Below are positions 3,634 to 59,935 of a DNA stretch of 64,000 nucleotides, one piece after another. A model generated the notes under the pieces. It saw only the letters and a program-made list of their open reading frames with translations. It made no database searches and was not told where the DNA came from. Positions within the stretch are counted from its first letter, which is position 1. Each line of letters begins with the position of its first letter. The stretch is taken from assembly GCA_035489575.1 (NCBI GenBank), contig DATHJY010000013.1, positions 91,346-155,345 on the forward strand. The letters run 5' to 3'. A program made the position numbers and the translations under genes. This DNA is from Verrucomicrobiia bacterium (GTDB taxonomy: Bacteria; Patescibacteriota; Saccharimonadia; Saccharimonadales; JAGQNK01).

Positions 3634-4779
3634 TTATACCCGCTCTCCATAATTATTGTGCAGGGCGTGATTTTCGACAACCGTAAGCGCATCTGGCGTA
3701 GAGGTGCCAAAGGCGTGAGTTCCGTTGATGATAAGCTGCCTCACAACCCCTGGCAGCTCAGAAGGGTCAGCTTCTTTTACTACTTCTTCAAAAACTGTCT
3801 TTACATCGCCCGGTCGATTTAACTCGCTATATATAGGAGAGATAAACGTCATGTTACCGGTCACGTTCGGCATGGCGTCGCCTATCGCCTCGCCCAATTT
3901 TCCGCGAGCCATCGACAGCGGCAGGCGAATAACCTGCGTCATGAAGCGCTTCTCCAGGATGAGTCTGGCAACGCTTCTTGCAACTTCGGCATGCGATATA
4001 CCCTCGCTACGTATGCGGGCAGCTTCGGGGTCAAAGCCAGGCACACTTGCGTAAGCAAGAGCATGTTTCGCCTCACCATCAAGAAAATAATGTCTCATGC
4101 CCCGAAGCAATGCAATGGTTTCCAGGGCGGCTATGTTCGATTTTTCACCAACACGCAATTCGCGGGAGCCCGGAGAGTCAAATACACTGATAGCCTTCAC
4201 AGGCCGCTCTAGCTGGGCGGCCACCTCCAGTCCAACCAATCCACCTTCGGATCGAGCGCGAATAGTGAGCACATAGTCTTCGAAGGCCGAGGCCAGACCG
4301 CCCAGTACTACTTCGGCAAAAGCAGTGTGCCGACCAGAACGGGCCACTTCCTTAGACACAGCGCGCGGCAAAGGGTCAGACTCACCAGTGTTGGGGTGGT
4401 CAGATACCAGCAATCGCATGCCTGGACTCATTCTTAAAATACCGGCAATTTCCCGGATCATTGACTCGTCCCGACATCTGCCCCAGTTCATAAACAAGGC
4501 CGTGATCTCGCCCGAATCACTGTCGTCCCCCAAGATGGAGTAAGCTACTTGTCGGCCTTTTGGCCCACCTTTGTATGGCTTTTCGAATAGCTCACGTATT
4601 GCTACCACGTCAGGATCGGTTGCCGTGGGTGGGCTATCGTATTGCTCGGGCGGGACAAAAGCAAAGGGTTCTAGTTCCTCTACTTGACCACAAGTGTCGG
4701 GCGTGAAGCAACGTGACAGTATCTCTACCCCGTCGGTTAGATCATAATCAATAACATTCGTAAGCGCCTGTTCAGTCAT
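3634..4779 (-). CDS. Hypothetical protein, possibly a divergent alpha/beta-hydrolase fold
   Basis: 381-aa ORF located 5 nt upstream of the preceding hydrolase gene on the same strand. Its only hydrolase-like hint is IRARSEGGLVG. No family recognised. Confidence 0.4.
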   Translation of the reverse strand: MTEQALTNVIDYDLTDGVEILSRCFTPDTCGQVEELEPFAFVPPEQYDSPPTATDPDVVAIRELFEKPYKGGPKGRQVAYSILGDDSDSGEITALFMNWGRCRDESMIREIAGILRMSPGMRLLVSDHPNTGESDPLPRAVSKEVARSGRHTAFAEVVLGGLASAFEDYVLTIRARSEGGLVGLEVAAQLERPVKAISVFDSPGSRELRVGEKSNIAALETIALLRGMRHYFLDGEAKHALAYASVPGFDPEAARIRSEGISHAEVARSVARLILEKRFMTQVIRLPLSMARGKLGEAIGDAMPNVTGNMTFISPIYSELNRPGDVKTVFEEVVKEADPSELPGVVRQLIINGTHAFGTSTPDALTVVENHALHNNYGERV

Positions 4780-16238: not shown

Positions 16239-16577
16239 ATGTCAGAATCAAAAGCACCCACCCAAGTCCGACCAATAGCCCAGCAACCATCCAAGGGGGT
16301 GAGTTATTGGAGTGTTACTATCGCAGCCTCTGGATTTATAGCACTTGGCGCACTGTTTTATCACCTTGTCGAGAAGCTGACATGGCTCGATTCTTTTTAT
16401 TTCACTACCATGACCCTGGCTACAGTGGGCTATGGCGATATAGCCCCCAAGACGAGCGTGGGCAAAGTCTTTACTATGTTTTATGTCCTGATTGGCATAT
16501 CTATCTTTGTCATCTTGGCCCGCATAGTCATGAGAGGCATACTGCGCCGCGGCGGTAGCAGCCAAAGCCAACAATAA
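16239..16577 (+). CDS. Miniature 2-TM potassium channel (112 aa)
   Basis: The selectivity filter TTMTLATVGYGDIAP is flanked by two TM helices. No RCK or other cytoplasmic gating domain is present. Confidence 0.75.
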   Translation: MSESKAPTQVRPIAQQPSKGVSYWSVTIAASGFIALGALFYHLVEKLTWLDSFYFTTMTLATVGYGDIAPKTSVGKVFTMFYVLIGISIFVILARIVMRGILRRGGSSQSQQ

Positions 16578-16630
16578 CCACATATTTACAGGGGCGGGGT
16601 AAAAAGGTAGAATAGCAGGGTTATCGCTAT

Positions 16631-16705
16631 TCCCGGGTAGCTCAATGGTGGAGCAAGAAGCTGTTAACTTCGAGGTTGTCGGTTCGAGTCCGACCCCGGG
16701 AGCCA
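16631..16705 (+). tRNA. tRNA-Asn (anticodon GTT), CCA encoded
   Basis: Hand fold: acceptor TCCCGGG/CCCGGGA, D-arm GCTC..GAGC, anticodon loop CTGTTAA, T-arm GTCGG-TTCGAGT-CCGAC, discriminator G, then CCA. Confidence 0.9.
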
Positions 16706-16709
16706 AATA

Positions 16710-16738
16710 TTGACAAATAGCACGTTTTGTGCTATTTT
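16710..16738 (+). promoter_or_regulatory. Consensus promoter TTGACA-17-TATTTT with a spacer palindrome; leaderless start
   Basis: TTGACA at 16710-16715. The spacer contains AGCAC-GTTTT-GTGCT. The -10 is at 16733-16738. ATG 16745 lies exactly 7 nt after the -10. Confidence 0.6.
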
Positions 16739-16744
16739 ATATTT

Positions 16745-17677
16745 ATGAGTGCTGAATTAATTGTTCATTCGGAAGTTCCTCCTCTTACATGGCAAGAATT
16801 TATAGAAACGCATCCTGTTGGATCGATTGCTCTAGATGGGTACGTTGGCGAAGGTCCGCAGTATGAACCAGAAGGCCCCTATTTAAACGCGAATCACCAC
16901 GAGGGTGTTAAGCGCCTTGAGACACTGTCTACAGCACAGCAAATACTCATGAATGTGCGTATGGGCCTAGATAAAGCCTTTACACGAGATGGTGTTTTTG
17001 CACCAAAAGTTTATGTTAATGACTGCGATCAGGATGTTTGTGCTGCCTGGTATCTTCTAAACCACGTAGAGCAGGCTAAAACTGTTACCAACCCGACTCT
17101 GAACCGATTTATTAACGTAGCAGGCACCCTTGATGCCACCGCGGGCGCTTTCCCATACGACAGGGATCTTCGAATCTTAGGTGAACTTGCTTGGGTATTT
17201 GAACCCTACACGATGTTTAGAGCTAGTGGGGAAATGGCAAGTAAGGATAATGAACAATACCGATCAGTTATTCAGAGCGTAGAAGCTAGAATTCAGCAAC
17301 ATCTGGTGGGTGGAGGAGAGTCCGCAAAGATCGATGCTCGCTATAAACTTGTGGGTGGTGGTCAAGACTGGAAAATGATTGAGGAAGTTGGCAAAGATGG
17401 GCGCGTTGGCGCGTTAGTTGATGGCATAGATGCGTATGTAGCCGTTCAAGAATTACCCGGTGAACGCTGGCGCTACACAGTCGGGCGAAGATCAGAGTTT
17501 ATACCATTCGATGTTCCTGTTCTGATAGACAGACTTAACCAAGTTGAGGCCTGTGAAAAAGACAGGTGGGGTGGCGCAACCATTATAGGTGGTAGTCCTA
17601 GGGTTAGTGGCAGCAAATTAAGCCCAGCGAAAGTCGAGAAAGTCATCAACGAGTTCATTGCCGAAGCCGAAGCGTAA
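16745..17677 (+). CDS. Hypothetical protein (310 aa), island cassette 1
   Basis: Frame of ORF 16727..17677; ATG 16745 (MSAELIVHSEVPP...). No family recognised. Acidic/His clusters (NANHHEG, NDCDQD) might hint at a metal-dependent phosphoesterase, but this is unsupported. Confidence 0.5.
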   Translation: MSAELIVHSEVPPLTWQEFIETHPVGSIALDGYVGEGPQYEPEGPYLNANHHEGVKRLETLSTAQQILMNVRMGLDKAFTRDGVFAPKVYVNDCDQDVCAAWYLLNHVEQAKTVTNPTLNRFINVAGTLDATAGAFPYDRDLRILGELAWVFEPYTMFRASGEMASKDNEQYRSVIQSVEARIQQHLVGGGESAKIDARYKLVGGGQDWKMIEEVGKDGRVGALVDGIDAYVAVQELPGERWRYTVGRRSEFIPFDVPVLIDRLNQVEACEKDRWGGATIIGGSPRVSGSKLSPAKVEKVINEFIAEAEA

Positions 17678-17695
17678 GTTTCGAAGTACGAGCGC

Positions 17696-18073
17696 TTGGG
17701 ATCGTTACTAGCTGATTGCTATATCTCGCTTTATTGCGGTTATAACGTACTCTATCGTTGTGAGCCAAGCATTTACAAATACCACATTACGTTTTATTTG
17801 TCCTGCGAGTACGAGGGCTATTATGCTATCTGGAAAGATTTAGTCTCTCCTGATACAAAAATCGCTGAAGATAAAGCTGGCGCACTAAGTCGCGCAACCA
17901 CTCCTGAAGAAGCTGCAACCATCGAAAGAGTATTCGGTTATTGTGCAATCGACAGATTGTCAGTAGCTCAAGAAACACTCGATGATCCTCTTACGAGTAG
18001 AGGTGCAAAAATGGGTGCTTATATATCTAGAGATTCAGTGGCTCGGGGCATAGAACCATATCGTCTTTCTTAA
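17696..18073 (+). CDS. Doubtful ORF (TTG start) covering repeat copy A
   Basis: 125-aa ORF with no ATG until near its end. Its N-terminal part overlaps the 45-bp repeat. The C-terminal half looks protein-like (TPEEAATIERVFGYCAIDRLSVAQETLDD). Confidence 0.25.
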   Translation: MGSLLADCYISLYCGYNVLYRCEPSIYKYHITFYLSCEYEGYYAIWKDLVSPDTKIAEDKAGALSRATTPEEAATIERVFGYCAIDRLSVAQETLDDPLTSRGAKMGAYISRDSVARGIEPYRLS

Positions 18074-18133
18074 AGTTGCGAAATACGCCCATTAGAGAGG
18101 GCCAGCTAAAGACATTTGCTATACTAGGTTCAC

Positions 18134-18379
18134 ATGAGCACCGACGAATTCACCAAATTATTTCAATACCTGCAGCAGATGGATAGAAAAATTGAAAAAC
18201 AAACTGAAACCATGGCCACAAAAAACAACATAAACCAGATACTAAATCGCTTAGACTCGATTGAAAAACAATTAGAAATTTCTGAAGATGAACGGTTAGT
18301 CATGGGCCATCAACTAGACAGGCTTGATCGTTGGGTTCGTGAAGTAGCGGACAAAATTGGCTATAAGCTGACTGTTTAA
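18134..18379 (+). CDS. Small coiled-coil protein (81 aa)
   Basis: Heptad-like sequence MSTDEFTKLFQYLQQMDRKIEKQTETMATKNNINQILNRLDSIEKQLEISEDERLVMGHQLDRLDRWVREVADKIGYKL. Confidence 0.5.
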   Translation: MSTDEFTKLFQYLQQMDRKIEKQTETMATKNNINQILNRLDSIEKQLEISEDERLVMGHQLDRLDRWVREVADKIGYKLTV

Positions 18380-18522
18380 TTTTTAGCGAAGGGGGACTGG
18401 GACTCACCGTGCGCTGATCCAGGTACCTTCGGCGACCCCGAAACTTCATCTTTGAGAGCAAGTTCTCAAGAGAAGATTTCCTTGCAAAAGTCCACTGGAC
18501 TTTCTCACCCAGGAGCCAATTT

Positions 18523-18550
18523 TTGACAAATACCACTTTTGTGGTATTTT
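18523..18550 (+). promoter_or_regulatory. Consensus promoter TTGACA-16-TATTTT with a spacer palindrome; leaderless start
   Basis: TTGACA at 18523-18528. The spacer contains ACCAC-TTTT-GTGGT. The -10 is at 18545-18550. ATG 18557 lies 7 nt after the -10. It is 87% identical to the 16.7-kb copy. Confidence 0.6.
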
Positions 18551-18556
18551 ATTTTT

Positions 18557-18856
18557 ATGATTGAAAAATATGTGATCACAGACGGACCAGATAAAGGTCA
18601 CATTAAGGACATAGATATTGCTATGGACCTTGCTTACACCGAAGACGCTTGGCGAGAGGAAAATGGTGGAATTCCTATGAATCAACCGCCAGAACGCTTA
18701 GGTAAACCAGAGTTCCGCTTTCGGCAACTAATAAATAGTGAATTAAGTCGCTTAATTCTAGAGGATATTGTATTAACAACAAAAAATGAACTTAACGAAA
18801 TTTATAATACTGAAGCCGCAAGGCAGGCTGATCCTGAGGAAAACAATGAGGATTGA
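18557..18856 (+). CDS. Hypothetical protein (99 aa), island cassette 2
   Basis: Frame of ORF 18539..18856; ATG 18557 (MIEKYVITDGPDKGHIKDIDIAMD...). Acidic C-terminus. Confidence 0.5.
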   Translation: MIEKYVITDGPDKGHIKDIDIAMDLAYTEDAWREENGGIPMNQPPERLGKPEFRFRQLINSELSRLILEDIVLTTKNELNEIYNTEAARQADPEENNED

Positions 18857-18868
18857 CTACGTTATAGA

Positions 18869-19039
18869 ATGGTTAATCGTTTGGCATCTTTAGGTGAAGA
18901 TAACGGTTTTGATGACCAAACCTGCTACGAAATTCTTGATATGCCACTCCCAGAAGCTTTTGAGACTGCATACAGCTACTTAACTCAAGCAGGTTTAGAG
19001 GCAGACACCATTCTTGCGGATTATACGGAGGCAGATTAG
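18869..19039 (+). CDS. Small acidic ORF (56 aa)
   Basis: My translation: MVNRLASLGEDNGFDDQTCYEILDMPLPEAFETAYSYLTQAGLEADTILADYTEAD. It starts 13 nt after the previous stop and is below the ORF-track length cutoff. Confidence 0.3.
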   Translation: MVNRLASLGEDNGFDDQTCYEILDMPLPEAFETAYSYLTQAGLEADTILADYTEAD

Positions 19040-19106
19040 TAGACCAGGTCCAACTTTATCGCAGTTATAACTTCCTCTATCGTGCTGAGCCAAAGATTAT
19101 GAACTA

Positions 19107-19136
19107 AAAAGCACCTCTGTAAGTTGAGGTGTTTTT
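19107..19136. terminator. Rho-independent terminator (A-tract / GC stem / T-tract, potentially bidirectional)
   Basis: AAAAAGCACCTC-tgtaagtt-GAGGTGTTTTT. Confidence 0.6.
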
Positions 19137-19204
19137 AATTTGGGATTGCCCCTTCATAAAGCGGATAGCAAAACTTTTCGACCAGATTGATTTAAGAACA
19201 AGCA

Positions 19205-19234
19205 TTGACAAACTGTATATTACAGAAATATACT
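19205..19234 (+). promoter_or_regulatory. Consensus promoter TTGACA-18-TATACT with CTGTA-tat-TACAG operator-like palindrome; leaderless brnT
   Basis: TTGACA at 19205-19210 and TATACT at 19229-19234. ATG 19241 lies 7 nt after the -10. Confidence 0.6.
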
Positions 19235-19240
19235 AAGTTT

Positions 19241-19546
19241 ATGGATATCTTGCCCGAGCCGCTGTCCTTCCAATGGGATAAAGGCAATATCCCTAAGAAC
19301 CTCCAAAAGCATAACGTGACTTATCAAGAAGCTGAGGAAATATTTGTCAACGATCCGTTTATCTTAGCCAGAGACAAAGATCATTCTAAGAGCGAGCGTC
19401 GTTATTGGGTATTAGGTCAGACTAAATCAAATCGAAAGCTCTTTGCAGCTTTTACGATTAGGGGCACTAAAATAAGAGTGATATCCGTTAGGGATATGAC
19501 ACAAGCAGAGGAGGATGTATATGAAGACTATGAAACAAATTCCTGA
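19241..19546 (+). CDS. brnT: BrnT-family toxin (DUF497 ribonuclease toxin)
   Basis: MDILPEPLSFQWDKGNIPKNLQKHNVTYQEAEEIFVNDPFILARDKDHSKSERRYWVLGQT...RVISVRDMTQAE shows the typical FEWDxxKxxxNxxKHGVxFxEA pattern. Confidence 0.8.
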   Translation: MDILPEPLSFQWDKGNIPKNLQKHNVTYQEAEEIFVNDPFILARDKDHSKSERRYWVLGQTKSNRKLFAAFTIRGTKIRVISVRDMTQAEEDVYEDYETNS

Positions 19547-19799
19547 GTTCAAGAACGAGCAAGAAGAAGCCGAGTTCTGGCGCACCCACAACTCTACAGA
19601 ATACGTAGATTGGTCAGATGCCAAGAAAACGGTATTCCCCAACCTCAAGCCAACTACCGAATCGATATCTCTGCGGCTACCGTCACCACTGCTGGCTCGC
19701 CTTAAAGAGTTGGCAAATGATCAAGATGTACCTTATCAGTCGCTTATGAAGGTATACCTAAACGATCGCGTAAAGCACGAGCTTAAGTCCAAGAAATAA
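19521..19799 (+). CDS. brnA: BrnA-family antitoxin (RHH/CopG-like C-terminus)
   Basis: MKTMKQIPEFKNEQEEAEFWRTHNSTEYVDW...SISLRLPSPLLARLKELANDQDVPYQSLMKVYLNDRV. GAGGAGG lies 6 nt upstream of ATG 19521. The gene overlaps the brnT 3-prime end. Confidence 0.75.
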   Translation: MKTMKQIPEFKNEQEEAEFWRTHNSTEYVDWSDAKKTVFPNLKPTTESISLRLPSPLLARLKELANDQDVPYQSLMKVYLNDRVKHELKSKK

Positions 19800-19961
19800 C
19801 TTTCTTTTACGGCAGACCAGAAAATTTGGAAACTGTCCATTAGGTCGAGCCAAACAAGGACTGTCCCCTAGGGGGGCGGTTTTTGTTTGGCTTTCGAGCC
19901 GGCCCCGAAGCAAGACAACGCACCAGCTTTAGCTGACAGAAGGTTGTCAGATATCAATTGG

Positions 19962-22093: not shown

Positions 22094-23191
22094 ATGACCA
22101 TAGATCACGAACTGCCTTACATTCCCCCAGCGTCTAGTGTTGACATATTGAGCGATGAGGCCCTGAGGGCAGGGGCACGGAACGTTGCCGAATCAAGCAG
22201 ACCGCGCGAAGGCTTTCCTGGCCTTATTGCCGGTTATCCAAATAGGCGTTTATATATGTCTCGTGAAGATGTTCTTGCAGCTACTATGTCCGAAGAGGTC
22301 CATGAACTGTCTGACGGTACGCTGACCAAGATTCATCGAATCTACCTTACGCCCGGACACGACACCGCGAGCCAAAGCCGTCAAGACTTTTTGTCTAATC
22401 CGGACAACACAGGCAATCTTCTTTACCCACCTGTTGCGGATATCACGACCGGCAGTGATAAAAAAGTCGCGCCGCAGGCTTTCCGGCGGTGGCTTGATAT
22501 GGGGTTTCGGGTATTCGATCAGCATGACAGAGTTTTGCCAGGAACATATGAACGGGTCATACAGCTACTAGGCTTAAGATCTCAGGGCAATTACGGCACA
22601 AAACTCGGTATGCCAGTCGGCAACGGTACCTTTGCGAGCCCTGGCTCGCACCCCGCAAGTGACCCTTTTATTCTTATGCGACTGGCTGATGGCGACCTTG
22701 CCACATTAGTCTCTGGCCATCCGCCAACAGAGCAATCCCATGAGGTATGGGTGCCGCCTGGGGGCTTCGGCTCAAGAGAAGATGTCGTTGAGGGTCGATA
22801 TTCTTCGTGGCAGGCAGCCGTCCGACTTTGTCTGAGGAAAACGGGCTTTGACATCAGGGAATTTCCTCACATGCCCGTGCATGCCGAACTAGCTCTCAGC
22901 TCCCCCACAACAATAAACAGCATTCTTATCCCGGAAAGCCATATGGTGGAAGCTCCATTTAGCGAGAATGCTAAAGTTTTGGATGAGATTCCAACCGGGA
23001 TAGATGTCCAGGGTGCTCAATGGCTATCCGTGCGGGCATTATTACGCCTCAACAATGGCATGCGTCGCCAGGGGCAAGCATCCGAACTCGATCAAGCAGC
23101 CCAACCCGACCATATCTACTGGGATACCCACATGCGCGGATTAATCGCAGCCGTGAATGCTCTTCGCACCGAAAGCCATTTGGTACACTGA
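22094..23191 (+). CDS. Hypothetical protein with a possible divergent Nudix (NUDT9/ADP-ribose pyrophosphatase-like) fold
   Basis: GMPVGNGTFASPGSHPASDPFIL...HEVWVPPGGFGSREDVVEGRYSSWQAAVRLCLRKTGF loosely follows the NUDT9-type pre-Nudix and Nudix-box spacing. The catalytic REx2EE is not intact. Confidence 0.3.
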   Translation: MTIDHELPYIPPASSVDILSDEALRAGARNVAESSRPREGFPGLIAGYPNRRLYMSREDVLAATMSEEVHELSDGTLTKIHRIYLTPGHDTASQSRQDFLSNPDNTGNLLYPPVADITTGSDKKVAPQAFRRWLDMGFRVFDQHDRVLPGTYERVIQLLGLRSQGNYGTKLGMPVGNGTFASPGSHPASDPFILMRLADGDLATLVSGHPPTEQSHEVWVPPGGFGSREDVVEGRYSSWQAAVRLCLRKTGFDIREFPHMPVHAELALSSPTTINSILIPESHMVEAPFSENAKVLDEIPTGIDVQGAQWLSVRALLRLNNGMRRQGQASELDQAAQPDHIYWDTHMRGLIAAVNALRTESHLVH

Positions 23192-23297
23192 GCCACTTCA
23201 ACAAAGTGCTCCGCTCTTACTTTCTTGCATCCTGCGTGGTCGCCCTGAAACACAAAAAGGTTGCTCTTTTTTTCAGGAGGTGGGGTATCATGCATTT

Positions 23298-23867
23298 ATG
23301 TACGAAGATCTAGCATATGCCATCGAGAAACTACTCGCCGAGCAGGAGGTGGTTGTCGTAGCAATATCGGGCCATGGTGGCTCCGGCAAATCGACCCTAG
23401 CCGATAAGCTGGCGCGCCAATTCGGGGTAGCCGATAATCAAATCATTCGAACCGATGGCCTGCACGCAAAGAGTTATATGCAAGCAAAAGACCTTTTTGA
23501 CCATCACGACTGGGCAACCATCATGGACATCATGTCGAATGCCCGCACCAGTGAGCGCCTGAAATACCTAAAGCGTAACGACAAAGAAATAGAGAGCATA
23601 GTTGATGAGCCGCGCCCACGAGTAGTCATATTCGAAGGCATTCGCCTACTGCGCCCAGGGATAATGCCCTTTGTAGACATCAGCGTTTGGATAGATTGCC
23701 CCATAGACCTAGCTACCGCCCGCGCCAAAGAAAGAAATCGTCAGCAGGGTGACAGTGAAGCCGAAATTGCACTATGGGATACCAAATGGGGCCCCGAAGG
23801 CAAGCTTTACGTAGAGCAAGTTTCGCCACACAAAATCGCGAGCTTTATATACACCGAATATATCTAG
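23298..23867 (+). CDS. P-loop nucleoside/nucleotide kinase (uridine kinase/PRK-like)
   Basis: Frame of ORF 23157..23867; ATG 23298. Walker A is VVVAISGHGGSGKSTLADKL. A hydrophobic beta-strand precedes D/E (VVIFEGI). Confidence 0.55.
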   Translation: MYEDLAYAIEKLLAEQEVVVVAISGHGGSGKSTLADKLARQFGVADNQIIRTDGLHAKSYMQAKDLFDHHDWATIMDIMSNARTSERLKYLKRNDKEIESIVDEPRPRVVIFEGIRLLRPGIMPFVDISVWIDCPIDLATARAKERNRQQGDSEAEIALWDTKWGPEGKLYVEQVSPHKIASFIYTEYI

Positions 23868-24985: not shown

Positions 24986-25570
24986 CTAGTCTGATCGTCG
25001 TTTCTTGATCCAAATATACTGCGCAACAATGACAGCACCTATAAATGTGCCAACTAATGACAGTAGCAAATCACCAATGGTATCACGATAGGCAGACAGT
25101 GATTCAACCGGATGGCTTCTTACAAAACTGGTGTACTCCAACGCTTCCCAAATAATGTGAGTTACCGCGCTGTAAGCAACTACCAGCCCCGCTGTCACCC
25201 ATTTTTCATATCCACGATCTCTTAGCAAATACCCCGCCACTAAAACCCAGGGAATCGACAGCAGCAGATGCATCACGTCGTCCCAAATGGTGATCTTGTC
25301 ATAGAGGGCAAGGGTGTTGCCCAGCAGGTCAAACGCCGCTACAAAGGTCAAAGCCATGTCGACAAAATAAGGATATGCCAGCAGTTTGTTTTTGCGCCTG
25401 GCAAAACTCCAAGCAATGTACGTTAGCAGAGCAGCCAACGGGTAGAAGACAACCCGAAGAGCAATGGCTTTGTTTTTGTACTGCGGCAGGTCACTAAAAT
25501 ACACTGCATGTACCAGCAGGCCAAGCAGGCCGAACTTCAGCAAAATATTAATAGCCTTAAGCTTGCTCAT
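24986..25570 (-). CDS. Polytopic integral membrane protein (about 5-6 TM)
   Basis: 194-aa ORF made of hydrophobic helices (LLGLLVHAVYF, VFYPLAALLTYIAWSF, LTFVAAFDLLGN, LLLSIPWVLVAGYLL, LLLSLVGTFIGAVIVAQY). Confidence 0.55.
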   Translation of the reverse strand: MSKLKAINILLKFGLLGLLVHAVYFSDLPQYKNKAIALRVVFYPLAALLTYIAWSFARRKNKLLAYPYFVDMALTFVAAFDLLGNTLALYDKITIWDDVMHLLLSIPWVLVAGYLLRDRGYEKWVTAGLVVAYSAVTHIIWEALEYTSFVRSHPVESLSAYRDTIGDLLLSLVGTFIGAVIVAQYIWIKKRRSD

Positions 25571-59567: not shown

Positions 59568-59570
59568 AAT

Positions 59571-59600
59571 AAAAAAGCCTGACTTTGTTGGGCTTTTTTA
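59571..59600 (+). terminator. Rho-independent terminator after tRNA-Ser
   Basis: AAAAAAGCC-tgactttgttg-GGCTTTTTT. Confidence 0.6.
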
Positions 59601-59602
59601 TT

Positions 59603-59626
59603 TGGCTAGGCGAAGGGGATTCGAAC
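59603..59626 (-). pseudogene. Orphan tRNA 3-prime-end fragment (T-loop to CCA) in inverted orientation
   Basis: The minus strand reads GTTCGAATCCCCTTCGCCTAGCCA. This is a T-loop TTCGAAT, half-stem CCCCT, 7-nt acceptor strand, discriminator G and CCA. No complementary 5-prime half is present. Confidence 0.4.
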
Positions 59627-59935
59627 GGGAGTGCCTGTGGCACTCCCCGGACCCGTAGCCCCAAAGATGCCTGACGGCATGTTTGGGGTCGAATAGGCAG
59701 CGCACTTGCGCTCGCCCGAGGCGAATCCCTCTGAAGAGGGCTATTTCTGAGTTTGAGCTAAGAGACCTAAACCTGAATCCCGAAACTCAATTTAACAGAG
59801 GTAGGTGAAAATGAAAGTCTACTCACCCCAACAGAGACGGCAACTTCACCCAAATCCTTATAACAGGGGTGTAGTTTCGGGATTCAGGTACCTAATGATT
59901 GAAATAACTACGGTTTGTTATATAATAACCGACCT

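Follow-up and report, generated by a model that had tools for sequence, protein, structure and literature searches.

The 64-kb stretch of DNA analysed here, called the window below (positions 91,346 to 155,345 of contig DATHJY010000013.1), carries three putative promoters, each followed at a distance of 6 nucleotides (nt) by a start codon, in the region behind a tRNA-Asn gene. A preliminary description of this DNA, made from its letters alone, had pointed to these promoters and to a palindrome in the spacer of each of them. It appears rather probable that these promoters drive the cargo genes of cassettes 1, 3 and 4 in a tandem array of four cassettes located at the 3' end of tRNA-Asn(GTT); this grading is a joint one, as it covers the whole of the favoured explanation, i.e. 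the cassette array, a terminator hairpin and a leaderless promoter module. The four cassettes lie between 16706 and 19853 and contain, respectively, a conserved open reading frame (ORF1), decayed sequence, a gene for a protein of ~160 amino acids (aa) with an in-frame TGA, and brnTA. Their sizes range from ~0.57 to 1.06 kb and none of them carries an integrase. A K+ channel gene and the tRNA-Asn gene are found upstream of the array, which continues from the tRNA gene through cassettes 1 to 4 to a terminator and then a convergent PIG-L/DUF7402 gene. The GC content decreases from ~50% to 38-44% over 17.5-19.5 kb. The features are listed below, where J designates a junction between units and L followed by a number designates a locus compared with the window.

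16631-16705, plus strand: tRNA-Asn gene (anticodon GTT), the anchor of the array (ARAGORN; Rfam tRNA, 63.6 bits)
16699-16706, plus strand: junction core J1, GGAGCCAA, the last 7 nt of the tRNA gene plus an A (direct-repeat family D1, fuzzy search)
16710-16747, plus strand: left-end module of cassette 1, with -35 box TTGACA (16710-16715), extended -10 box TGcTATTTT (16730-16738), 6 nt and ATG (16745)
16715-16744, plus strand: hairpin AAAUAGCAC-guuuu-GUGCUAUUU (16715-16737) and U-rich run, proposed terminator of the tRNA-Asn transcript (scan, fold, covariation)
16745-17677, plus strand: ORF1, cargo of cassette 1, conserved hypothetical protein of 310 aa with N-terminus MSAEL (517 homologues)
17729-17768, plus strand: right end D2a of cassette 1, a mimic of the tRNA-Asn T-arm and acceptor, ending in TGAGCCAA (45-nt repeat, 82% identical to D2b)
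17769-18512, plus strand: decayed cassette 2, with a degenerate left module (TTTACAAATACCACATTACGTTTTATTTG) that has lost hairpin and ATG (weak fold, -3.9 kcal/mol, z = -1.1)
18134-18379, plus strand: 81-aa coiled-coil ORF in cassette 2 with its own promoter, TGcTATACT-8-ATG
18508-18519, plus strand: J3 core remnant CCCAGGAGCCAA, resembling the tRNA-Asn 3' end (direct repeat)
18523-18559, plus strand: left-end module of cassette 3 (the second cassette of the preliminary description), with -35 box TTGACA (18523-18528), extended -10 box TGgTATTTT (18542-18550), 6 nt and ATG (18557)
18528-18549, plus strand: hairpin of cassette 3, AAAUACCAC-uuuu-GUGGUAUUU (-10.6 kcal/mol, z = -3.7)
18557-19039, plus strand: cargo of cassette 3, a single ~160-aa gene broken by an in-frame TGA (18854-18856; homologues of 157-168 aa)
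19054-19093, plus strand: right end D2b of cassette 3, ending in TGAGCCAA, near-identical to the right end at ~3903-3932 of L049
19112-19141, plus strand: strong hairpin and T-run (CACCUC...GAGGUG UUUUU) starting 18 nt past the J4 core, the terminator that opens the brnTA cassette (-15 kcal/mol, z = -4.4)
19205-19243, plus strand: brnT promoter TTGACA-18-TATACT-6-ATG (pattern scan; comparison with L053 and L054)
19241-19799, plus strand: cargo of cassette 4, brnT (19241-19546) and brnA (19521-19799) (Pfam)
19847-19892, plus strand: fifth GAGCCAA (19847-19853) inside an inverted repeat with 21-bp arms, and T-run, the distal end of the array (inverted repeat, read from the sequence)

The pattern TTGACA-N16-18-TANNNT-N6-ATG was counted over the whole window, and exactly three matches were found, all on the plus strand (16710, 18523 and 19205, referred to as site 1, site 2 and the brnT site), versus 0.03 expected by shuffling; none of 100 shuffled sequences reached three. 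Hexamers and spacers are as previously described, the spacer and the -10 box being 17 nt and TATTTT at site 1, 16 nt and TATTTT at site 2, and 18 nt and TATACT at brnT, with 10-11 of the 12 consensus positions of a sigma-70-type promoter matched at every site. The gaps of 6 nt that separate the -10 box from the ATG at 16745, 18557 and 19241 read ATATTT, ATTTTT and AAGTTT, respectively, and none includes a Shine-Dalgarno sequence. The first reading had missed the extended -10 box of sites 1 and 2 and the position of site 1, which starts only 5 nt past the end of tRNA-Asn. It had also missed that sites 1 and 2 are copies of one ~53-nt direct repeat that starts within the tRNA-Asn 3' end (GGAGCCA) and takes in the last 11 nt of the tRNA gene. 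The claim that three promoters share one design as independent events is therefore not supported, since two of them are homologous copies of a cassette end, while brnTA would have an unrelated promoter with the same leaderless geometry as that of cassettes 1 and 3.

The start codon of ORF1 is fixed by the N-terminus MSAEL, which is conserved among the homologues, and the gene callers used for two public assemblies picked the same leaderless start codons. Upstream regions of ORF1 orthologues were retrieved via the proteins and are thus unselected for any promoter feature. TTGACA was found exactly 35 nt 5' of the ATG in all four close orthologues (the window, L003, L045 and L046), and L046 has kept TTGACA-17-TATTGT-6-ATG. 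Other ORF1 homologues are preceded by TTGATT-17-TAATAT-6-ATG (L004) or TGtTACAGT-6-ATG (L005), and homologues of the cassette 3 cargo by TTGACT-16-TATTTT-6-ATG (L047) or TTTACA-17-TATTAT-6-ATG (L049). Among the sites found with GGAGCCAANNNTTGACAAATA, TANNNT was present at 16-18 nt in 10 of the 11 that resemble sequences from the candidate phyla radiation (CPR), nine of them with TGn, compared to one of 24 chance hits, a contrast that is partly circular because the metagenome matches were sorted by eye into these two classes. In the window itself, TANNNT-N6-ATG and TANNNT-N7-ATG each occur 11 times in front of ORFs of 80 or more codons, compared with ~4.9 for the background (~2.2-fold enrichment), and leaderless mRNAs may be common in the source genome. 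As relatives keep both promoter boxes, the -10 box in its extended form, as well as the 6-nt spacing to the ATG, and as the design is enriched throughout the window, the three promoters are probably real and their mRNAs leaderless. This reading is well supported by comparison, and the leaderless design devoid of Shine-Dalgarno sequences proposed in the preliminary description is thereby supported.

A promoter ending near the ATG was also seen for a dozen more genes of the window, for example at 4779 (minus strand), 4843, 18134, 23904, 38337 (minus), 43270, 51992 and 61239 (minus). TANNNT, often with TGn, is present 6-8 nt 5' of the start codon at 25570 (minus), 34632 and 59164 (minus) as well; these genes are unrelated.

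The palindromes reported in the three spacers are all present (AGCAC 16719-16723 and GTGCT 16729-16733; ACCAC 18532-18536 and GTGGT 18541-18545; CTGTA 19213-19217 and TACAG 19221-19225). At sites 1 and 2 they extend to 9-bp stems, AAAUAGCAC/GUGCUAUUU and AAAUACCAC/GUGGUAUUU, with energies of -9.9 and -10.6 kcal/mol (z = -3.9 and -3.7; none of 200 shuffled sequences folded as well). Both hairpins were flagged by a terminator scan and are directly followed by a U-run. The J1 hairpin begins 10 nt past tRNA-Asn, and the J3 hairpin follows the 81-aa ORF and the tRNA-end remnant. Seven of the 11 left-end sites fold well at the same position, with differing stems (AGCAC, ACCAC, AGUAC with a G.U pair, CAGUAUA, CAGCAUAA, UAUAUAUA and also ACUA) and a T-run after each. 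The compensatory G/C exchange noticed between the two copies is real and continues in the relatives: over eight related sites, pair 21-33 is CG in four and GC in three, and pair 22-32 is CG in three, UA in two and UG in one. The covariation score was 0.214 compared to 0.122 for shuffled alignments, a value reached by 9 of 500 shuffles and by none of the slid registers, which all scored lower; with eight related sequences and two pairs, this is a small base. The G.U pairs of L029, L042a and L047 are workable only in RNA of the plus strand. Elsewhere in the window, the terminator of a tRNA-Ser gene begins 4 nt past the CCA end, and each of the four intact tRNA-Asn genes seen has a hairpin with T-run behind it. 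Where arrays end distally, the terminators behind GAGCCA are of the ordinary kind, richer in GC and lacking TTGACA (J4 of the window at 19112-19131, -15 kcal/mol; L047; L042).

A terminator fits these data and an operator does not, because the structure is kept without the sequence, G.U pairs are tolerated, a U-run follows and the hairpin lies ~10 nt past the tRNA. The dyads of sites 1 and 2 are thus best read as putative intrinsic terminators located at the left edge of the cassettes, inside the promoter spacer. RNA polymerase would start within a base or two of the A of the ATG, giving a leaderless mRNA without the hairpin, and transcripts coming from upstream, from tRNA-Asn or from the preceding cassette, would contain the hairpin and the U-run and would terminate there. 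In this way, the left-end module would stand in for the tRNA's own terminator, which insertion moves to the distal side of the array, and each cassette would be insulated. The extended -10 box TGnTATTTT would be built from the 3' arm of the hairpin and the U-run, as part of a ~45-nt left end common to cassettes 1 and 3, and the G-C to C-G swap would reflect selection on the RNA hairpin between two homologous copies.

The core GAGCCAA recurs at 17762, 18513, 19087 and 19847, making five cores with that of J1, and the direct-repeat family CCC(G/A)GGAGCCAA-N3-TTGACAAATA(G/C)CAC is represented at 16695 and 18508 and, in degenerate form, at 17757. The right ends D2a and D2b, a 45-nt repeat with 82% identity starting at 17729 and 19054, were aligned with the sequences before J3 and J5 of the window and with right ends from L009, L026, L042 (two), L047 and L049 (three). 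They align with the T-arm and acceptor end of tRNA-Asn in a shared form, GGTT(C/A)TAA...TC(C/T)...GGAGCCAA, with a T-loop insertion of ~5 nt. This homology is visible only on alignment, as exact and near-exact searches with D2 returned only copies of the window itself. Right ends start directly at the stop codon in L046 and 15-52 nt past it in the window, and left ends finish at the start codon. Taken together, the five cores and the right-end alignment indicate that direct repeats of the tRNA end bound elements at the tRNA 3' end. The GGAGCCAA or TGAGCCAA that closes each right end would be the presumed crossover core, at which recombination would occur by means of a recombinase supplied in trans.

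The same elements were found at different array positions and in different genomes, next to tRNA-Asn (L047, L049, L046) and, for brnTA, next to tRNA-Trp (L053 versus L054). In L047, where the homologue of the cassette 3 cargo has 77% identity, an intact tRNA-Asn that differs from that of the window is directly followed by GGAGCCAAAATTGACTAAATGCCACttttGTTGTATTTTATTTTTATG, after which come the gene, the right end GTTCTGAACGAGTCAACTAGTCGGAGCCA and a terminator of ordinary type. In L049 (65% identity), the cargo lies between a right end plus left end on one side and a right end near-identical to D2b on the other; the left end, with the promoter given above, has the stem AATACTA/TAGTATT. The N-terminal over-extension LWYFIFMI of a 57%-identical cargo homologue shows that the DNA upstream of it is identical to J3. 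The ORF1 homologue of L046 (83% identity) belongs to a locus where a tRNA-Asn identical to that of the window is followed by its own terminator, and where several junctions consist of a stop codon, TTCTAAC, a GAGCCA-like core, a promoter, 6 nt and an ATG, the ORF1 homologue being at one of them. ORF1 homologues also occur in unrelated contexts, and the possibility that ORF1 is a fixed neighbour of tRNA-Asn was rejected, as there is no synteny among the homologues. An independent array was identified in L042 behind a tRNA-Asn gene with a group I intron; it comprises two cassettes, two 120-nt right-end repeats and two left-end hairpins. Small ORFs also lie between tRNA-Gln remnants in L055, one of them being a 49%-identical homologue of the cassette 3 cargo, in this case with an anchor that differs from tRNA-Asn. 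At positions 1143-3784 of L055, at least six copies of the tRNA-Gln 3' end (CTTGGCTGAGCC..., plus strand) are present in the 2.6 kb adjoining tRNA-Gln.

The tRNA-Asn(GTT) gene of L042 (1617-1889, minus strand) is missed by ARAGORN; its anticodon loop is split by a group I intron of ~200-225 nt (RF00028, 55.2 bits). Apparent tRNA remnants on short contigs (L037, L029) could likewise be intron-split tRNAs cut by the contig end. For the remnants of the window, no tRNA gene was detected upstream of J3, with no tRNA or Rfam match at E up to 5. A hidden RNA gene in front of J3 was rejected, as the Rfam scan of 16560-19260 at E up to 5 gave only tRNA-Asn and L021 gave none. A split or intron-containing tRNA at the remnants was rejected as well, since no matching 5' acceptor strand was found within 3 kb upstream, apart from one doubtful match in L021. 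A phage or virus origin was also discarded: two scans of viral contigs gave only chance matches inside coding sequence, and PHROGs gave nothing useful. A number of public contigs have one of their ends within the tRNA or a junction (L002 at its position 1, equal to window position 16676; L004 at its position 1; L012 at its end; L029 at position 37). Such breaks would be expected if junctions are repeated or variable within populations.

The fourth cassette encodes a BrnT_toxin protein (Pfam, 2.9e-22) and a CopG_antitoxin protein (6.2e-33; BrnA, of the CopG/ribbon-helix-helix type). BrnTA of Brucella abortus is an autoregulated type II toxin-antitoxin system. The window operon shares with it the brnT-brnA order, the Pfam families and an inverted repeat overlapping the promoter, but the candidate repeat is GTATAT-N7-ATATAC and the operon is itself a tRNA-linked cassette. 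The stretch of the brnT promoter does not fold significantly (z = -1.3). The aligned promoters read TTGACAAACTGTATATTACAGAAATATACTAAGTTTATG in the window and TTGACAAAC-GTATATCACAGTAATATACTTAAATCATG in L053 and L054, in which a 76%-identical brnT homologue has TTGACA-17-TATACT-6-ATG, with both boxes and the 6-nt gap kept. The CTGTA/TACAG dyad (19213-19225), formerly proposed as the site of BrnA autoregulation, is lost in both. An inverted repeat that overlaps this dyad and the -10 box, GTATAT (19215-19220)-N7-ATATAC (19228-19233), is retained in both in a comparison of one homologue group of ~80% identity overall that leaves out the closest homologue (92% identity). The idea of a BrnA operator may thus stand, with the repeat weakly suggesting itself as a plausible candidate site of BrnA/BrnTA autoregulation. 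In L053, the brnTA homologue directly follows tRNA-Trp, and in L054 it follows a mimic of the tRNA-Trp 3' end; the block has the same limits in both, ends at a shared terminator, and the contigs diverge right after it. Both contexts come from one sample, the positions concerned being 2758-3010 in L053 and 1760-1975 in L054, with right ends at ~3790 and ~2760, respectively. In L054, the tRNA-Trp mimic lies behind a PLD-like gene, and an IS200-type transposase gene adjoins the shared terminator.

Several findings weigh against the favoured explanation. No recombinase Pfam domain was found in any of the large ORFs scanned across the window (five Pfam batches), and excision of the cassettes, as a circle or as an empty site, was not observed. 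In L003 and L045, the position expected for the -10 box holds no good match to it, and the left ends of L009, L042a and L042b have a leader of 45-50 nt with a GGAGG Shine-Dalgarno sequence, so that the leaderless form would be common, not obligatory, among left ends. The hairpins are AT-rich (3-4 G-C pairs) and their U-run is broken by an A (UAUUUUAUAUUU); termination at such structures could be weak. The hairpin is absent, with the promoter kept, from the left-end sites of L013, L026, L031 and L037 and from the ORF1 orthologues L003 and L045, and is for that reason dispensable for expression. The anatomy of the sequence, the homology of the ends, their conservation in relatives and the covariation are direct observations, whereas both the start and the termination of transcription at the locus are deduced from sequence.

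Other explanations of the left ends were considered. According to the preliminary description, the palindromes could be operators or hairpins, and an operator for a dimeric repressor would agree with the classic repressor position over the -10 box and with the joint change of both arms between the two copies. The operator reading is not supported for cassettes 1 and 3, as the stem sequence differs among homologous sites, with unrelated stems at the same place, as the dyad of L029, L042a and L047 is disrupted at the DNA level by G.U pairs, and as a T-run follows every stem. No regulator gene is present in these two cassettes according to Pfam and PHROG, and the promoter of L003 and L045 has no dyad at all. 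Conservation in homologous loci thus extends to the structure, in seven of 11 sites, and not to the sequence, the stems being variable or absent; we regard an operator at these two cassettes as highly improbable. The genes might instead not be leaderless, i.e. be transcribed from the tRNA-Asn promoter or earlier cassettes upstream, or from a start within the module, and translated without a Shine-Dalgarno sequence, the hexamers being by-products of an AT-rich terminator. TATTTT indeed arises from the stem end and the T-run, so that a -10-like hexamer comes free, and the ORF1 homologue of L007 is translationally coupled to the upstream gene. This is nevertheless quite doubtful, given that TTGACA is fixed 35 nt from the ATG in four orthologues, some of them without a hairpin, that nine of 11 left-end sites have the TGn of an extended -10 box, and that the same geometry is seen at brnT and a dozen other genes of the window.

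The role of the left ends in mobility and the origin of the units are also open to other readings. The hairpin, and perhaps TTGACAAATA, might be mainly a recombination site (an attP-type core or arm, double-stranded or folded, as in integron attC), which could coexist with termination. The start of the module coincides exactly with the junction core, GCCAA-N3-TTGAC is almost a palindrome, and the left-end DNA is identical in the cargo homologue with 57% protein identity, a conservation stronger than a terminator alone needs; conservation of structure and not of sequence would also fit the logic of attC. However, the T-run after every stem is needless for recombination, arrays end in ordinary terminators without TTGACA (J4 of the window, L047, L042), the right ends are not attC-like in their folding (z = -0.5 to -0.9) and no recombinase was identified, and a role mainly in recombination seems unlikely. 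Alternatively, there may be no mobile cassettes, the repeats of the tRNA 3' end being scars of a few large, decayed integrative elements and the small units their leftovers. Tandem islands with partial tRNAs and decayed elements without integrase are well known (PMC5704250; PMC3146451; 10.1101/2020.12.28.424599), no recombinase is found nearby, decay is plain to see in cassette 2, and a stop codon interrupts the cargo of cassette 3. By contrast, the same single-gene unit with the same ends is the sole insert in L047, the third in the window and internal in L049, the right ends lie near stop codons and the left ends at start codons, and the brnTA block has identical limits in two contexts of one sample. 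Decayed scars are thus a rather unlikely origin of the units. The array of cassettes with a terminator and a leaderless promoter in the left end remains the explanation that we favour.

The locus was compared with the closest known systems. In the leaderless-gene promoters of Actinobacteria and Deinococcus, TANNNT lies at -12 to -7 from the start codon. The promoters of the window resemble them in that the -10 box ends 6-7 nt before the ATG, no Shine-Dalgarno sequence is present and many genes of the same genome are concerned, but differ in having a full -35 box, an extended -10 box and a fused hairpin, in a host that is probably a CPR bacterium. Similarly, a stem-loop with a U-run within ~10 nt of the 3' end is what is seen in intrinsic terminators after tRNAs (tRNA-Ser of the window; tRNA-Asn of L046), whereas the stem-loop of the cassettes lies inside a promoter spacer, doubles as the -10 region and travels with a putative mobile cassette. 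Cis-mobilizable elements (CIMEs) of the ICESt1/ICESt3 type are att-flanked, lack an integrase and occur in tandem at a tRNA 3' end with copies of the tRNA end between them (PMC5704250). The units described here are likewise integrase-less and arranged in tandem at a tRNA 3' end, but at 0.5-1 kb, usually with one gene, with ends close to start and stop codons and with their own promoter, they do not look like products of random decay. Successive insertions that push older elements outward and leave partial copies have been described for the tandem ssrA islands of Dehalococcoides, at the tmRNA gene (PMC3146451), and for the tycheposon islands of Prochlorococcus, at tRNA genes (10.1101/2020.12.28.424599); those elements measure several kb and many have their own recombinase modules, none of which was seen in the window array. 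As with integron cassettes, units of one or two genes without recombinase are gathered at one site and the same cargo occupies varying positions. Unlike in integrons, no intI, attI or Pc adjoins the array, the units end in tRNA mimics and the cassettes bring promoters of their own. Folding of the D2 regions in the manner of attC was not significant on either strand (z within the range given above for right ends), and identity with an integron was rejected on the grounds of the missing intI, the absence of attC-like folding and the cassettes' own promoters.

ORF1 gave no match in Pfam or PHROG. It represents a widespread CPR family of 310 aa with the conserved motifs SIALDGYV, NANHHE and NDCDQD, which suggest an enzyme. 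In the cargo of cassette 3, the TGA at 18854-18856, which splits the gene into ORFs of 99 and 56 aa, corresponds to Trp (TGG) in all eight aligned homologues, and the same split was called in two independent assemblies (L001, L002). Either this TGA is a nonsense mutation that makes the gene a pseudogene, or it is read through or recoded. At a distance of a few kb from the array, a small STAND/NB-ARC-like NTPase is encoded at 23157-23867 and a protein with a weak RexB-like match at 24986-25570 (minus strand); both may be related to defence. Further away, ~350 nt of non-coding DNA (59568-59930) follow tRNA-Ser and its terminator; they contain several long inverted repeats and a stretch that, on the minus strand, resembles a tRNA 3' end (GTTCGAATCCCCTTCGCCTAGCCA). 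An Rfam search at E up to 1 gave no match for this DNA, which may represent a further tRNA remnant, a tRNA with an intron or a second hot spot.

The named homologues of ORF1 belong to Candidatus Microsaccharimonas, the Parcubacteria group and other metagenome-assembled genomes, with an identical protein labelled 'Verrucomicrobiae bacterium' in NCBI, and the left-end motifs recur in metagenome-assembled genomes of Saccharibacteria and Patescibacteria. The host is a probable Saccharibacteria/CPR bacterium. Our literature search found nothing relevant on leaderless genes or tRNA-linked cassette arrays in Saccharibacteria/CPR. It is established that elements can accumulate in tandem at tRNA or tmRNA genes, leaving partial copies of the gene behind, and that att-flanked elements may lack an integrase. 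What appears distinctive, as far as sequence comparison can tell, is the small and often single-gene unit with ends near the start and stop codons and a built-in terminator-promoter module, recurring at tRNA genes of the CPR. These units might belong to a previously undescribed gene-capture system of Saccharibacteria/CPR, which we put forward tentatively, in which single-gene cassettes of 0.5-1 kb would be stacked at tRNA 3' ends (Asn, Gln, Trp) by a recombinase acting in trans. Such a system, equally tentative in this respect, would have a tRNA-end mimic on the right of each cassette and a terminator and leaderless promoter on the left, so that a gene would be insulated and expressed wherever it lands, in an integron-like but tRNA-anchored manner.

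One lesson for annotation is that a palindrome over a -10 box need not be an operator. The locus also provides testable predictions on leaderless translation in a phylum for which we found no description of such genes. CPR bacteria, with their tiny genomes, are difficult to grow in culture, and the way in which they gain and express accessory genes is little understood. If the units truly move, they would constitute a simple route for the exchange of single genes, toxin-antitoxin pairs included, at tRNA hot spots, and the left end would represent a portable promoter-terminator part for the few genetically tractable Saccharibacteria.

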